Positions 41,141 through 46,661 of a stretch of DNA of 64,000 nt are shown piece after piece; position 1 is the stretch's first letter; each line of letters begins with the position of its first letter. This DNA is from Bacteroidia bacterium. GTDB taxonomy: Bacteria; Bacteroidota; Bacteroidia; M30B66. The stretch covers positions 1,408,001 to 1,472,000 of the forward strand of contig OZ257142.1 of the NCBI GenBank assembly GCA_965279035.1, written 5' to 3'. A model generated the notes under the pieces. It worked only from the letters and a program-made list of their open reading frames with translations. It did no database searches and was not told the DNA's origin. The position numbers and the translations under genes were made by a program.

Positions 41141-43249
41141 ATGAAACTGATTCGTATTGCCGGTCTACTTATGCTTGGACTTACATCTCTGCCTGAAGCT
41201 CAGGCGCAAATTACCTATCCTAAAACTCGGAAAACTGATGTTGTGGAAGACTATCACGGAACTAAGGTTGCAGATCCATATCGTTGGTTAGAAAACGATA
41301 CTTCTGCCGAAACCAAAGCTTGGGTGATAGCCGAAAACGAAGTGACAAATTCATATTTGTCTAAAATTCCGTATCGAAATAAAATTCGTGATCGGATTAA
41401 CGAATTGCTCAATTATCCGCGTTATACAGCCCCTAATAGTGTTGGTAGATTTTACATCTACAGCAAAAACGATGGGTTACAAAACCAAAGCGTTTACTAT
41501 CGTCAAGATGGTTTAACGGGCGAACCAACCGTTTTTCTAGATCCGAATACCTTAGCAAAAGACGGCACTGCCTCAGCAGGGTTTGCAGGTGTTTCTACCG
41601 ACAAAAAATACATTGCTTACACAGTTAGTCGTGCCGGTAGCGATTGGTCCGAAATGCGTATTCGTGAAGTAGCAACGGGGAACGATTTGCCCGATGTGAT
41701 TCAATACGTGAAATTTTCGGGAGCTGCTTTCGTAGGAAATGGTTTCTATTATTCGCGTTATCCATCACCCGAAAAAGGACAAGAACTTTCGGGACAAAAT
41801 AAATTCCACTCGATATATTATCACCAATTGGGCGATAAACAAGAGCGCGATCGTTTGATCTTTGTCGATAAAGCCAATCCATTACGCTATCATAGCGCTT
41901 ATGCAACGGAAGATGAGAATTTCTTGGTTTTATCGATTAGTGAAGGAACCGATGGAAATGAAACCTGGATTCGGAATTTGAAAGCTGGCGAAGAATCATT
42001 TCATCCACTTATTAGCGGATTCGACTTTGTTAGCAATGTGGTCGATAATGAAGGAGATAAATTGCTTGTTCACACAAATATCGATGCTCCGAATTACCGC
42101 TTGGTATTGATTGATCCTAAGAATCCGGCAAAATCCAATTGGAAAAACATCATTCCCGAAAGTGTGAATTTGTTGAAAGGTGTTTCAACCTGCGGTGGGA
42201 AATTGTTTGCAGAATATTTGAAAGATGTGAATTCTCAAGTGTTTCAATACGATCGTTCCGGTAAAATGGAACACGAAATTTCGCTCCCTGGAGTTGGTTC
42301 AGCAGGCGGATTTGGTGGTTATAAAGAAGAGACATTCTGCTTTTATACTTATACTTCATTTAATTATCCACCAACAATTTTCAAGTATGATATTGCTTCT
42401 GGAAAATCGACAGTTTTCCGTAAATCAGAAGTGAAATTCAATCCCGAAGATTACGAGGTAAAACAAGTGTTTGCTCCTAGTAAAGACGGTGCAAAAGTGC
42501 CCATGTTTATAGTGCACAAAAAAGGCTTGAAACTCGATGGACAAAATCCAACCTTGCTCTATGCTTACGGAGGATTTAACGTGAGTTTAGAGCCCGGATT
42601 TTCGGCTACACGTATTCCGTTTTTAGAAAATGGTGGTGTGTATGTGATGGCTAATTTACGTGGTGGTGGAGAGTATGGTGAAACCTGGCATCGTGCCGGT
42701 ATGATGGAGAAAAAGCAGAATGTATTTGACGATTTTATTGCTTGTGCCGAATGGTTGCAATCCAATAAATACACTTCAAAAGATAAACTCGCAATTCAAG
42801 GTGGTTCTAATGGAGGATTGTTGATTGGTGCAGTTATGACACAGCGTCCTGATTTATTTGCTGCATGTATTCCTCAAGTTGGTGTGATGGACATGTTACG
42901 CTTTCAGAAATTTACTGTTGGTTGGGGTTGGGTTGATGAATATGGTTCATCGGATGATGCTAAAATGTTTCCGGTTTTACTTGGATATTCACCACTTCAC
43001 AACATTAAAGAAGTAAGCTATCCAGCCACAATGGTTATGACTGCCGATCACGACGATCGAGTTGTACCGGCACATTCCTTCAAATTCATTGCTACCTTGC
43101 AAGAAAAAAACAAAGGTGCCAATCCAGTGCTCATTCGTATTGAAACCAATGCAGGACACGGTGCAGGTACAGCGCTCAGCAAATCGGTAGAACAAGCTGC
43201 TGATATTTATTCGTTTATCTTCTTCGCTACTCATTCAACTGTCAACTAA
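41141..43249 (+). CDS. Prolyl oligopeptidase (S9A), exported
   Basis: VADPYRWLE, NLRGGGEYG, GGSNGGLL (Ser), ADHDDRVVP (Asp), AGHGAG (His). Confidence 0.96.
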   Translation: MKLIRIAGLLMLGLTSLPEAQAQITYPKTRKTDVVEDYHGTKVADPYRWLENDTSAETKAWVIAENEVTNSYLSKIPYRNKIRDRINELLNYPRYTAPNSVGRFYIYSKNDGLQNQSVYYRQDGLTGEPTVFLDPNTLAKDGTASAGFAGVSTDKKYIAYTVSRAGSDWSEMRIREVATGNDLPDVIQYVKFSGAAFVGNGFYYSRYPSPEKGQELSGQNKFHSIYYHQLGDKQERDRLIFVDKANPLRYHSAYATEDENFLVLSISEGTDGNETWIRNLKAGEESFHPLISGFDFVSNVVDNEGDKLLVHTNIDAPNYRLVLIDPKNPAKSNWKNIIPESVNLLKGVSTCGGKLFAEYLKDVNSQVFQYDRSGKMEHEISLPGVGSAGGFGGYKEETFCFYTYTSFNYPPTIFKYDIASGKSTVFRKSEVKFNPEDYEVKQVFAPSKDGAKVPMFIVHKKGLKLDGQNPTLLYAYGGFNVSLEPGFSATRIPFLENGGVYVMANLRGGGEYGETWHRAGMMEKKQNVFDDFIACAEWLQSNKYTSKDKLAIQGGSNGGLLIGAVMTQRPDLFAACIPQVGVMDMLRFQKFTVGWGWVDEYGSSDDAKMFPVLLGYSPLHNIKEVSYPATMVMTADHDDRVVPAHSFKFIATLQEKNKGANPVLIRIETNAGHGAGTALSKSVEQAADIYSFIFFATHSTVN

Positions 43250-43251
43250 TT

Positions 43252-43743
43252 ATGCAAGAACCCGAAGAATTTCAAGAACTCACTGATACTGATTTTTTCA
43301 GTGTTGCCGAAGTATATCAACTCACCGAAATGGTGAATGAAACCTTGGCGCGAGTTACCTATCATTACTGGGTAAATAGGGCAAATGGGCAATTATTTGA
43401 AGTTCTTGATTGGATCACGTTTCACTTTGATAGTGGTAAAACTTTATCCATTACAGCTGGTCCCGAAACCGATGGAATCAAAGTAACTGAGCCAGATATT
43501 GAAGCGGAACGCAAACGTATCGAAGAAGAGTTTAAAGGGGTGGTTACGATTGAATCTCGAGATGTTTCTAAAACGAAATATTGGAAAGAAACGATTGGTA
43601 AATCCATTACTCCATCTTTTATTAAACACGAAGGAAAGGTGTTAAACGATAGCATTGTTTTAAAATTTGAAGATGCCGAACCAGTTGAAATTTTCCTTGG
43701 ATTAGAAGGATTGGAAGTAGATGATTTTGATGAAGAAGATTAA
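43252..43743 (+). CDS. Acidic hypothetical protein
   Basis: 163-aa ORF with 2-nt spacing to both neighbours. Confidence 0.75.
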   Translation: MQEPEEFQELTDTDFFSVAEVYQLTEMVNETLARVTYHYWVNRANGQLFEVLDWITFHFDSGKTLSITAGPETDGIKVTEPDIEAERKRIEEEFKGVVTIESRDVSKTKYWKETIGKSITPSFIKHEGKVLNDSIVLKFEDAEPVEIFLGLEGLEVDDFDEED

Positions 43744-43745
43744 TT

Positions 43746-44081
43746 ATGACAAAAACTCGTAGACAACCCGCTCCCAAACAAGTAAGAAATTCCGTTTTTG
43801 ATGGAGTTTGCTTAGCTAGTGCTTATATCATGCAGGAAGGCAAACCTGTTGGATTTATGTACCGAGAAGAACCAGAAGAGGACTTGGATTCAGGCTGGCG
43901 CTTTTTATCGGGCGATGAAGACGATGCTTATCTCGATAATGAGGACAATTATGGTGTTTACGACGTTGAAGCAGTGATGCTTATTGATCCTGCTATCAAA
44001 CAATATCTCAAACTCCCATTCGGTTCAGAATTAGAGCGGAAAGACGATCATTTCGTTCAATTACCACCCGAAGAAGAGTAA
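43746..44081 (+). CDS. DUF2185 (Imm33-like) domain protein
   Basis: VGFMYREEP...DSGWRFLSGDE.DAY...IDPAI..YL.LP.GS. Confidence 0.85.
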   Translation: MTKTRRQPAPKQVRNSVFDGVCLASAYIMQEGKPVGFMYREEPEEDLDSGWRFLSGDEDDAYLDNEDNYGVYDVEAVMLIDPAIKQYLKLPFGSELERKDDHFVQLPPEEE

Positions 44082-44101
44082 GTAAAACGTAATATGCAGT
44101 G

Positions 44102-44131
44102 AGGCAGGAACATTATTTTCCTGCCTTTTTT
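44102..44131 (+). terminator. Intrinsic terminator
   Basis: AGGCAGGAA...TTCCTGCCT followed by a T-run. Confidence 0.8.
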
Positions 44132-44175
44132 ATTCTAATGGATGTTGAAATAGTGCTTTTCCCTATCATTGTGCA

Positions 44176-44472
44176 ATGAATCAATACCTCGTCGACTTAG
44201 ATCTCCCAATCGAGATGACCGAAGAGTTCATTGCACTGATTCCAGAACAACGGCGACAGATCAATGAATTAATGTCGGGAGGAATTGTTTTATCCTATGC
44301 CTTATCGCAAGATCGCACCAAAGTTTGGGCAACGATTAATGCCGAATCGGAACTGGAAGTGCAAGAGATTTTAGAATCCATGCCACTCATCGACTATATG
44401 GAACCTACCATTTACGAATTGGCATTCTACAATGCAACTGGTAACGGCTTACCAGCTATTTCCTTGAATTAA
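44176..44472 (+). CDS. Muconolactone delta-isomerase-like protein
   Basis: LIPEQR..INELM..G..LSYALS.DR.KVW...A.SE.EV..IL..MPL..YM pattern. Confidence 0.75.
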   Translation: MNQYLVDLDLPIEMTEEFIALIPEQRRQINELMSGGIVLSYALSQDRTKVWATINAESELEVQEILESMPLIDYMEPTIYELAFYNATGNGLPAISLN

Positions 44473-44483
44473 ATCTACGTATC

Positions 44484-44628
44484 GCTGGCTTCGACAGGCT
44501 CAGCCAGCGGTTGGTACTATTCTGTTCTAGTCGAATTGTTGGCTGAGCTAGTCGAATTGTTGGCTGAGCTAGTCGAATTGTTGGCTGAGCTAGTCGAATT
44601 GTTGGCTGAGCTAGTCGAAGCCAACGTT
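44484..44628. repeat. REP-like block L (145 bp): hairpin, 4 x 21-bp tandem units, inverted hairpin
   Basis: GCTGGCTTCGACAGGCTCAGCCAGC, then (GTCGAATTGTTGGCTGAGCTA)x4 at 44530-44613, then GTCGAAGCCAAC. Confidence 0.92.
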
Positions 44629-44900
44629 GGCAGCAAAAATAACTCCTGTCTAATTAATGCTTCTTTTTTTTCTCGCCTCCATTTTTGTACTTGCTTTTCT
44701 CTGTAAAAAGCTTGGTCAATTCTTTCAAATTATTCAATATAAACAATTGAAACCGGTAAGCGATTTTGTGTGTGTTTTGCACCATTTCCAGTCTGGTGTT
44801 CTCGTAAACGTTTTTCAATATTTATAGTGCTTCCCGTGTAATAAGTGCCATCTGAACAAAGCAAAATATACATGAATCCTAAATTGATATTTCTTTTCAT
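44517..44900 (-). pseudogene. Small GIY-YIG nuclease (UPF0213/YazA-like) with one in-frame TAA at codon 57
   Basis: Hand translation: MKRNINLGFMYILLCSDGTYYTGSTINIEKRLREHQTGNGAKHTQNRLPVSIVYIE*FERIDQAFYREKQVQKWRREKKEALI...; TAA at 44730-44732; the frame ends with TAG at 44517-44519 inside block L. Confidence 0.88.
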
Positions 44901-45003
44901 AATTTGTTTAAATAATTTTATAATAACTTTATATACACTAAAATAAGAAAAATATTATTTGCTTGGATTATAGTGGGTTCATAATGTAAAAAATTTATCA
45001 AAG

Positions 45004-45127
45004 GCTGGCTTCGACAGGCTCAGCCAGCGGTTGGTGCTTTTCTGTTCTTGTCGAATTGTTGGCTGTTCTTGTCTAATTGTTGGCTGAGCTTGTCGAATTG
45101 TTGGCTGAGCTTGTCGAAGCCAACGTT
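45004..45127. repeat. REP-like block R (124 bp): direct repeat of block L with 3 units
   Basis: Same 5' hairpin and 3' end as block L; units at 45050, 45071 and 45092 with substitutions. Confidence 0.92.
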
Positions 45128-45157
45128 TATTTTCTCTATTTTTATTTAAAATGTAGT

Positions 45158-45748
45158 ATGAAATTCTTTCAATTCATATCGCTAATCACTTATGTTTTTA
45201 TAAGTATATTCACTTCTTGTAAGAAAGATGAAGTAGCAGAATCAGCTGTACATTGTGTGGATCACATTAATTATATAGGGAATTATTTATTAGATTATTC
45301 TTCAGATGATAGTTTAAACTATGCAGCTTATCCAAGTTTTAACCGTGAAAAAATATTTATCCCATCAGCCTTCACACCTAATAATGATAATATCAATGAT
45401 CATTTTATAGCAATAATTAATTTGAAAGAAAGTACAAGTAACTACCAGGCTATTTTAACTATTTATTACCAAGGATTATTTAAACATGGCGAATTTGCAA
45501 GTTTTAAAAATGATTACTTTTTTAATTGGGAGTTTCCAGATGAAGCTTATACCAAGAGATTATATGATGTGTATTTAGTTATCAGTCAAAACGGACAAGA
45601 ATTAAATAATTTTCATATGCAATGTTGGGCGTTGAAACCAGATCAAAATGGGTTCTTGCCTAAGTGGTCAAGCTGCTTAACGTATGATGATCAATTTGAA
45701 TTACGTTATGGTTTAATTTTTCCAACTCAAGAGAAATTCAAACCCTAA
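45158..45748 (+). CDS. Lipoprotein with an internal gliding-motility C-terminal (T9SS type B CTD-like) motif
   Basis: Start MKFFQF at 45158; lipobox FTSC-KKD; FIPSAFTPNNDNINDHF. Confidence 0.7.
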   Translation: MKFFQFISLITYVFISIFTSCKKDEVAESAVHCVDHINYIGNYLLDYSSDDSLNYAAYPSFNREKIFIPSAFTPNNDNINDHFIAIINLKESTSNYQAILTIYYQGLFKHGEFASFKNDYFFNWEFPDEAYTKRLYDVYLVISQNGQELNNFHMQCWALKPDQNGFLPKWSSCLTYDDQFELRYGLIFPTQEKFKP

Positions 45749-45806
45749 TTTGACAAATTAATTTAGGGCAATATTCAGGATTAATTCCACAGAAAAATAA
45801 TCGTTC

Positions 45807-46274
45807 TTAATTGTTTTCTTTTTCCAATTCTTTATCACGAAGATTCTTAACATAATCATGATCTTTCTTCAATAATGATAATTGAAGGCTTATGATTTTG
45901 CGTTGAGTAGGAGTTAATTCGTCTGATCGATCTAATAACACACTCCTGTATACTTTTAAAGCCACATCTTCCCCGTATTCACATGAATTTAAAATTGTTT
46001 TACGATCATTTTTCCCTAATGCAACTTTTACATCCATCCAAACTCGAAAAAATTTACCTGAGATTTTAGTTTCATTGGTTGGTGTGCCTTTTAAACGAAG
46101 TATCTCAATCGACAATTCATTTTTACAATTTTCGCTTGTATGAATCATTTTTTGAAAAAGCGCTGATAAATCACTTTCTTTCGTTTCTGATTCAGCTGTT
46201 TTGTATCCTTCCATTCGATCATTGTTTATTTCTACCAATGAATTTAAAACGGCAATTGATTTTTCAGTTTCCAT
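45807..46274 (-). CDS. PA2169/DUF2383 ferritin-like four-helix-bundle protein
   Basis: LNSLVEINNDR.EGY, GKFFRVWMDVK, ILNSCEYGED.A..Y. Confidence 0.88.
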   Translation of the reverse strand: METEKSIAVLNSLVEINNDRMEGYKTAESETKESDLSALFQKMIHTSENCKNELSIEILRLKGTPTNETKISGKFFRVWMDVKVALGKNDRKTILNSCEYGEDVALKVYRSVLLDRSDELTPTQRKIISLQLSLLKKDHDYVKNLRDKELEKENN

Positions 46275-46661
46275 AGATGTTTAGTTAGTATTATTTGATT
46301 GATTTGTTTTATTAGTTCAAAATTAGGTCTAGGAATTCGTATTCTTTAATTTTCCCTTGTTCCATCTTTGTGGATTAAATCCCTGTATTAATTTCATTGA
46401 TCCATAGTTAAAGTATGGATACTAGTCAAATTTGTTTGAATTATTCTCGAACAACCATCCTCATTCCTTGCTTCATTTGTATACCATCTGCTTGGCTCAA
46501 AAAAAAATGGTTGAATTGTTAGATTCAACGTGGTCTGGGCTTCGCCTTATTTCATTTATATTTTGACGGTAAATAGTAAAATGGGATAGAATTAGAAAAG
46601 AAAGTTGAATTGCTTCTGCGCGATTTTTATTAAACGGAAATTTATTTCCCCCCAAGGTATT

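Follow-up and report, generated by a model that had tools for sequence, protein, structure and literature searches.

A GIY-YIG nuclease pseudogene set between hairpin repeat blocks in a Bacteroidia genome: the probable remnant of an Ssn-like module

Within the window, by which we mean the whole 64-kb stretch of DNA analyzed here (64,000 nt), a single small gene lies between two direct-repeat blocks. The upstream neighbour is a muconolactone-isomerase-like gene (44176-44472, PF02426 E 5e-8), and block 1 starts 11 nt past its stop codon. The downstream neighbour is a 196-aa ORF without a Pfam match that begins at 45158, ~30 nt beyond the end of block 2. The features of the locus are the following.

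44483..44628, no strand assigned: block 1, consisting of hairpin 1, a 21-bp array and an inverted hairpin 2 (repeat search, folding)
44483..44509, plus strand: hairpin 1 of block 1, stem cgctggct/agccagcg (8 bp), loop TCGACAGGCTC
44527..44619, no strand assigned: 21-bp tandem array of block 1, 4.4 copies with 100% matches (TRF)
44601..44625, minus strand: hairpin 2 of block 1, stem gttggct/agccaac, loop TCGACTAGCTC (minus-strand reading)
44520..44900, minus strand: GIY-YIG nuclease pseudogene, the domain encoded by 44631-44900 and the frame continuing into block 1
44730..44732, minus strand: in-frame TAA at codon 57
44901..45003, no strand assigned: AT-rich spacer 5' of the nuclease gene, putative promoter region
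45004..45127, no strand assigned: block 2, with the layout of block 1 in direct orientation, 88% identity
45004..45028, plus strand: hairpin 1 of block 2, stem gctggct/agccagc, loop TCGACAGGCTC
45047..45118, no strand assigned: 21-bp tandem array of block 2, 3.4 copies, 92% (TRF)
45100..45124, minus strand: hairpin 2 of block 2, stem gttggct/agccaac, loop TCGACAAGCTC (minus-strand reading)

The overall architecture agrees with the first-pass annotation of this DNA, which had described two direct-repeat blocks, each with an inverted hairpin pair around 4 or 3 tandem 21-bp units. The repeat search recovers a direct repeat family of 128 nt (44471-44598 versus 44991-45118, 88% identity). The termini within each block form inverted arms of 24-27 nt that are 88-89% complementary, and a single-stranded block folds through these termini into one long hairpin (z −4.0 to −5.1), with a stability matched by 0 of 200 shuffles. 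The first hairpin had been called imperfect; in fact all four stems at the locus are perfect, with 7-8 bp around an 11-nt loop. On the opposite strand, the hairpin 2 loops of both blocks read TCGAC[T/A]AGCTC. The array units were rightly taken to be truncated copies of the second hairpin, the unit of block 1 being the 5' stem half of hairpin 2 plus its loop, cut off right after TCGAA. As regards the hallmarks of a MITE, the inverted termini of 24-27 nt are present, and by eye no target-site duplication is evident at the block edges. With up to two mismatches allowed, the 14-mer TTCGACAGGCTCAG has eight matches in the 64-kb window, every one of them at this locus. Only 0.27 would be expected by chance, eight were reached in 0 of 100 shuffles, and the hairpins recur in many genomes, which rules out a chance origin.

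The only gene between the blocks encodes a small GIY-YIG nuclease, as had been reported, and no HUH Y1 transposase is found there. Its minus-strand frame starting at 44900 matches PF01541 with E 7.9e-12, and the stop noticed earlier at codon 57 is present. At this codon the intact relative at locus L250 encodes Gln, and other homologues encode Glu, Thr or Gly. Because the stop removes the C-terminal half, which is conserved in all aligned homologues, the window copy is a pseudogene, predicted to be unable to act now. The frame had been thought to end before block 1; instead it runs through hairpin 2 and the array to a stop at 44520-44522. Each 21-bp unit thereby extends the nuclease ORF by exactly seven codons without shifting the frame, and the encoded tail reads (NSTSSAN)n. 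Likewise, the intact L250 ORF terminates inside hairpin 2. The family is that of single-domain GIY-YIG proteins of fewer than 150 aa, the L250 orthologue having 103 aa and the window copy being cut short by its stop. In NCBIfam no family scored above cut-off for the window protein or for four homologues; the group I intron endonuclease model reached 20.9 bits, below its cut-off of 56.

What is the history of the site? A metagenome scan with the upstream neighbour yielded 11 syntenic loci. At the same site, L250 carries a block, the intact gene and a second block, and L246 lacks the gene and has just one block, composed of hairpin 1 and hairpin 2. The flanks of these two loci are 98.4% and 99.8% identical, and the L246 block is the right-hand block of L250 minus one 21-bp unit, otherwise identical. 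The window shares ~88% identity with these loci in the left flank and 75-80% in the gene and right flank. Because the gene is at this site in both the window and L250 lineages, L246 is most simply read as a deletion between two direct blocks, in the manner of a solo LTR; alternatively, the gene may have been gained in L250. Comparison of these loci speaks for vertical inheritance followed by decay or deletion, and not for recent movement. The suggestion that this copy spreads or amplifies its own palindromes thus finds no support, the enzyme being dead and its relatives at the site indicating inheritance with decay or deletion.

A search of related strains for empty sites produced no clean pair of empty and filled loci. 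L246 keeps its solo block, and at the more distant syntenic loci L247-L249 and L251-L256 the downstream gene is a different one and hairpins are absent, which makes them unusable as empty sites. In metagenome X1, a relative ~90% alike up to 44474 lies on a contig that continues into hairpin-1-like sequence, and this contig represents neither an empty nor a filled site. Contigs X2-X4, which come from one sample, probably the source sample, and are not independent of the window, break at the repeats, and none contains a joint skipping the element. Their unitig depth is ~3x for the array and ~2x for hairpin 1. Because the exact hairpin-1 word stands at about 2x depth, the exact blocks are a two-copy feature of the source genome, not a high-copy family.

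Several further observations concern the surroundings of the site. In L247 (1770-1830) and L248 (4297-4360), whose upstream gene product shows 86% amino-acid identity, block 1 is replaced by a tandem repeat of 8 bp (ATTACGRA-like), after which comes a different gene. The window also contains an Imm33 immunity-protein gene (43746-44081, PF09951 E 2.6e-28) after a 163-aa ORF without a Pfam match (43252-44081 for the two); the pair is syntenic in L246-L249 and may be part of a polymorphic-toxin immunity cluster. In X2-X4, loose ends at window positions 44505 and 45025 show the hairpin core continuing into CGAACGG..., the variant of proteobacterial loci, and other organisms or other repeat variants seem to be present in that sample.

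We searched 401 Bacteroidota genomes for homologues of the nuclease (E up to 1e-5) and found one in 236. The best 30 loci were examined, together with 60 further loci taken nearly in list order, leaving aside rows that had internal stops and any second hit in a locus that was already included. A strict hairpin was taken to be one in which a loop of 9-40 nt, starting with TCGA and ending with CTC, is closed by a perfect stem of 5 bp or more. Such a hairpin lies within 500 nt of the gene in 23 of the 30 closest homologues and in 31 of the next 60, or 54 of 90 in total, and 26 of the 90 have strict hairpins on both sides. The enrichment of the palindromes in the flanks of homologues, raised earlier as a check, is therefore real. 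The density of strict hairpins is 3.65/kb within 250 nt of the gene, 1.31/kb at 250-500 nt and 0.07-0.5/kb farther out, and 1.08 Mb of mononucleotide shuffles contained none. No strict hairpin occurs within 500 nt of the remaining 36 of the 90 homologues, and by eye several loci of this kind show imperfect versions. Within the 64-kb window, strict hairpins are confined to the locus described above.

The loops fall into four subtypes: TCGACARGCTC, which is that of the window, TCGAGARCCTC, TCGACTNCGCTC and TCGATAC-[nested hairpin]-TACTC. When loops were picked without any stem criterion, at least four Watson-Crick pairs closed 73 of 94; when the 3' side was slid by 1-3 nt as a control, this was the case for 0 of 94. 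Among 46 hairpins there are 28 distinct stems, with GC, CG, AT and TA exchanged at the third and fourth pairs. Because loops chosen without bias are closed by pairs, and because so many different stems occur, we conclude that the structure of the hairpin is conserved and that its stem sequence is free. A check on co-variation between palindrome and protein was answered in part: loop subtype tracks the protein tree weakly (21 changes versus 26.4 in shuffles), and we claim no subtype-specific co-evolution.

These results bear on two other readings of the locus. The first is a purely local duplication of chance palindromes with no wider family, which would accord with the ~2 copies of the exact hairpin word in the source genome and with its absence from the rest of the 64-kb window. 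It is refuted by the presence of the same loop with other stems beside homologues in dozens of genomes, and in at least 116 stretches across phyla (below), so that we give it almost no credence; the repeat is not unique to this locus. The second assigns the hairpins a role at the RNA level, in which they terminate, attenuate or stabilize the transcripts of flanking genes, and takes their nearness to the nuclease gene to reflect its regulation. The close spacing of the two blocks to the neighbouring reading frames (11 nt and ~30 nt) and their stable folding as single strands are compatible with such a role. However, hairpin orientation relative to the nuclease gene is mixed (86 hairpins share its strand and 81 lie on the other, on either side of the gene), and conservation is strand-symmetric. 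The hairpins have no T-run, and Rfam, searched over 43000-46500 at E up to 1, returned solely a sub-threshold match to a microRNA family (19.9 bits versus a gathering score of 150). Moreover, the Ssn system of the sister clade is reported to act on ssDNA and not on RNA (PMC11893778). We regard an RNA role as distinctly improbable.

The concept of a GIY-YIG enzyme whose gene is flanked by its own hairpin repeats has already been published by Chenal et al. (Nat Commun 2025, PMC11893778). SsnA of N. meningitidis is there a 94-aa single-domain GIY-YIG protein (cd10448) reported to bind and cut ssDNA only, next to the NTS hairpin repeat. The Ssn-related motif (SRM) is found in the flanks of 71% of Ssn homologues and on both sides in 42%. 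Ssn proteins were delimited by cd10448 (GIY-YIG_unchar_3) as the best CDD model and by blastp against SsnA with E <1e-10 and at least 75% cover. The identity of the NTS loop was reported to be dispensable, the conserved part being the 5' tail. The authors liken NTS-ssnA-NTS to insertion sequences (IS200/IS605) and to REP/RAYT. The REP/RAYT-like layout to which attention had first been drawn here, with dispersed inverted doublets clustering at the enzyme gene, is indeed found, and the analogy is already made in that paper. Like the Ssn system, the present family pairs a single-domain GIY-YIG gene of ~80-100 aa with bracketing hairpins that are also dispersed genome-wide, and repeats and gene co-occur across phyla. 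Unlike the SRM, which consists of a conserved 5' GTC tag and a hairpin, the hairpins described here have a conserved loop and a free stem.

The protein tree adds a second difference. From 128 proteins and 80 columns (quick search; L121, without a 60-aa match, and L216, a duplicate of L125, were left out), a split with SH-aLRT 99 separates two sister clades. Clade 1 contains all 12 SRM-flanked genes and clade 2 all 59 genes flanked by TCGA...CTC hairpins, including that of the window, so that one change explains the two flank labels. A 15-row subclade inside the window's clade has no hairpins at all. The clade split largely coincides with a phylum split (Alphaproteobacteria versus Bacteroidota), and one genome breaks this confound: a Novosphingobium genome encodes two clade-1 paralogues (L124, L125) with CGTC-tagged hairpins and three clade-2 paralogues (L118, L120, L123) with TCGA...CTC hairpins. 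The published SRM pattern matches at L125 and at 11 of 29 alphaproteobacterial L125-like genes, and none of those 29 genes has a TCGA...CTC hairpin. In the window the same pattern has 0 hits (shuffle mean 0.1), and the 500-nt flanks of the 90 Bacteroidota homologues contain none. The window nuclease and L125 match at E ~9e-10 with 33% identity (tblastn). By sequence, the nearest PDB relatives of the window protein are the small GIY-YIG proteins of UPF0213, 1zg2 (BH0048, E 3.6e-14) and 1ywl (EF2693, E 4.2e-14), over residues 7-84; L125 matches the UPF0213 proteins in the PDB at E 0.01. Thus the window protein belongs to the sister clade of the SRM-flanked proteins and is much closer to UPF0213, for which we take COG2827 and YhbQ to be other names. 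To our knowledge, both PDB entries are structural-genomics depositions without a described function or repeat association.

Two further systems invite comparison. REP and REPIN elements with their RAYTs resemble the present family in their short hairpins, often paired in inverted doublets capable of folding into one longer hairpin, and in the many dispersed copies with a cluster at the presumed cognate enzyme gene. They differ in their enzyme, which is a HUH tyrosine transposase and not a GIY-YIG protein; we know of no transposition chemistry for the GIY-YIG fold. I-TevI-type homing endonucleases share the catalytic fold, and a selfish-element lifestyle is suspected here too, but the window protein has no DNA-binding extension, no intron or phage context, and a chromosomal intergenic site. 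Four 14-mer strings of the motif are absent from the searchable literature. Literature listings returned nothing relevant on GIY-YIG with REP and Bacteroidetes, only Chenal et al. on SsnA or GIY-YIG from 2024 on, and, for UPF0213, YhbQ, COG2827, cd10448 or cd10456, nothing on repeats besides that paper. Against this literature, what appears to be new is another class of hairpin, whose conservation follows the opposite logic and which goes with a sister clade of the characterized Ssn enzymes; the supplementary tables of PMC11893778 may already list TCGA...CTC motifs.

How far do the hairpins extend beyond the nuclease genes? Searching one genome per species, we found exact GGCTTCGACWRGCTCAGCC in at least 116 stretches, and the matches listed come from Alpha- and Betaproteobacteria, Chloroflexota, Actinomycetota and Bacteroidota. 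A nuclease homologue was detected by tblastn in one of these 116 listed stretches (L114); therefore, most hairpins lie far from such a gene. The genome-wide count proposed earlier shows the palindromes to be dispersed in homologue-bearing genomes. Five genomes that encode close homologues contain 29, 29, 43, 5 and 1 exact copies of TTCGASARSCTCAG, and a Ferruginibacter genome contains 96, which makes 203 in the six; the reversed-pattern control gave 0 in each. Of the 203 copies, 24 have a gene of the clade no more than 700 nt away, which is hundreds of times the genome-wide density. The other 179 (88%) lie elsewhere, often as inverted pairs 40-60 nt apart. With close homologues defined by a best E up to 1e-25, at least five motif copies are present in 11 of 27 genomes that have one, as against one of the first 20 listed genomes without a homologue (Fisher p 0.0067; Mann-Whitney on copy numbers in the same genomes, p 0.058). 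The other 16 of the 27 have fewer than five copies of this loop type, and such low-copy genomes carry other loop subtypes.

Two genomes count against a strict pairing of hairpin and nuclease. Oscillochloris trichoides DG6 (G003, the genome of L061) has 142 exact copies of TTCGASARSCTCAG, many in inverted pairs ~30 nt apart, and no small Ssn-like GIY-YIG gene was found in it; its only GIY-YIG matches are a 643-aa ORF, presumed from its length to be UvrC, and a homing-type gene without hairpins. Likewise, the Bacteroidales MAG G004 has 22 motif copies, and its sole GIY-YIG match lies in a 632-aa ORF. Such genomes lend weight to another explanation, in which the hairpins are an independent REP-like repeat, spread by other means or serving as terminators or structural DNA, and a selfish GIY-YIG gene homes to them, the hairpin being its landing site. 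The 88% of copies away from any gene of the clade and the gene-less solo block in L246 would also accord with it, and proteobacterial paralogues nested in a mostly Bacteroidota clade suggest that the gene moves between hosts. However, the gene is present at this site in both the window's species and L250, L246 is more simply explained as a deletion than as an uninvaded site, and no clean contrast between empty and filled sites was found. An independent repeat that serves as a landing site would also require recognition of the hairpin by the nuclease, and differs solely in causal direction from the Ssn-like module that we favor. We consider it unlikely, though deserving of serious attention.

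Three side observations concern other genomes. The Novosphingobium sp. genome mentioned above (G002, that of L114) has 226 motif copies, and its five small GIY-YIG paralogues come from both clades. At L127 (1058-1201; G128:C1:1140653-1140805), a truncated second copy of the nuclease gene is separated by ~300 nt from the complete one, and hairpins both surround the two and lie between them, a tandem duplication of the module. In Microbacterium mangrovi (L002:4447-6611), a GC-rich actinobacterial contig has eight motif copies arranged in 54-bp and ~72-bp tandem arrays.

The tandem arrays deserve separate consideration. The right-hand array has 0 extra units in L246, 1 in L250 and ~2.4 in the window, and the left block of L250 has a 57-bp duplication instead. 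Because unit number differs among these three loci, the 21-bp arrays evidently change quickly. Arrays of partial hairpins also occur at other GIY-YIG loci: 21 bp x 6 at L147, beside a 54%-identical gene; 15 bp x 3, twice, at L138; 24 bp x 4 at L140; and 16 bp x 4 at L163. Apart from the one 16-bp case, their periods (15, 15, 24 and 21 bp) are multiples of three. The unit is broken right after TCGA(A/T) in the window as well as in L250 and L147. This breakpoint would fit faulty repair after nicking at the loop's 3' edge, and it would equally fit slippage at a stalled hairpin. The idea that the arrays are products of a cut-and-repair cycle is thus unsupported: they are recurrent and strain-variable, and replication slippage would explain them equally well.

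We propose, with a probability of roughly 0.6, that what the locus preserves is an Ssn-like module in decay, a single-domain GIY-YIG gene among its own hairpin family. The hairpins of such a module would combine a variable, covarying stem with a conserved loop of 11-12 nt (TCGA...CTC), often as inverted doublets, and would be concentrated beside the genes of this nuclease clade, with tens to hundreds of copies elsewhere. By analogy with SsnA and NTS in the sister clade, we infer that an intact enzyme would bind the hairpin in ssDNA and cut nearby. Once the enzyme is dead, the blocks would persist as REP-like intergenic DNA, and recombination between the direct blocks could delete the gene, as presumably happened in the near-identical strain with one solo block (L246). 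Arrays of 21-bp half-hairpins would arise either from slippage at the hairpin or from repair of a nick made by the nuclease. Thus, of the original suggestion that a GIY-YIG enzyme acts on its own palindromes, the family-wide association proves to be real and extends to other phyla; the activity and recent movement of this particular copy do not stand. More tentatively, and somewhat against the odds, the conserved-loop hairpin (TTCGACARGCTCAG and its relatives) could be among the most widespread bacterial repeats and the ssDNA target of a separate, loop-reading Ssn-like clade, with the array breaks after TCGA(A/T) marking the nick site. In the present data, TTCGACARGCTCAG-type hairpins occur in Bacteroidota, Pseudomonadota, Chloroflexota and Actinomycetota.

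Finally, if the association is functional, a conserved loop on a free stem would constitute a second recognition logic for the only known family of site-specific ssDNA endonucleases, and more enzyme and site pairs would become usable as ssDNA tools. It would also provide an enzyme partner for an intergenic repeat that litters several phyla. The three states seen at one site, an intact gene, a dead gene and a solo block, show how decay of the module leaves orphan hairpins behind, and such decay may account for genomes in which the repeats occur without the nuclease.
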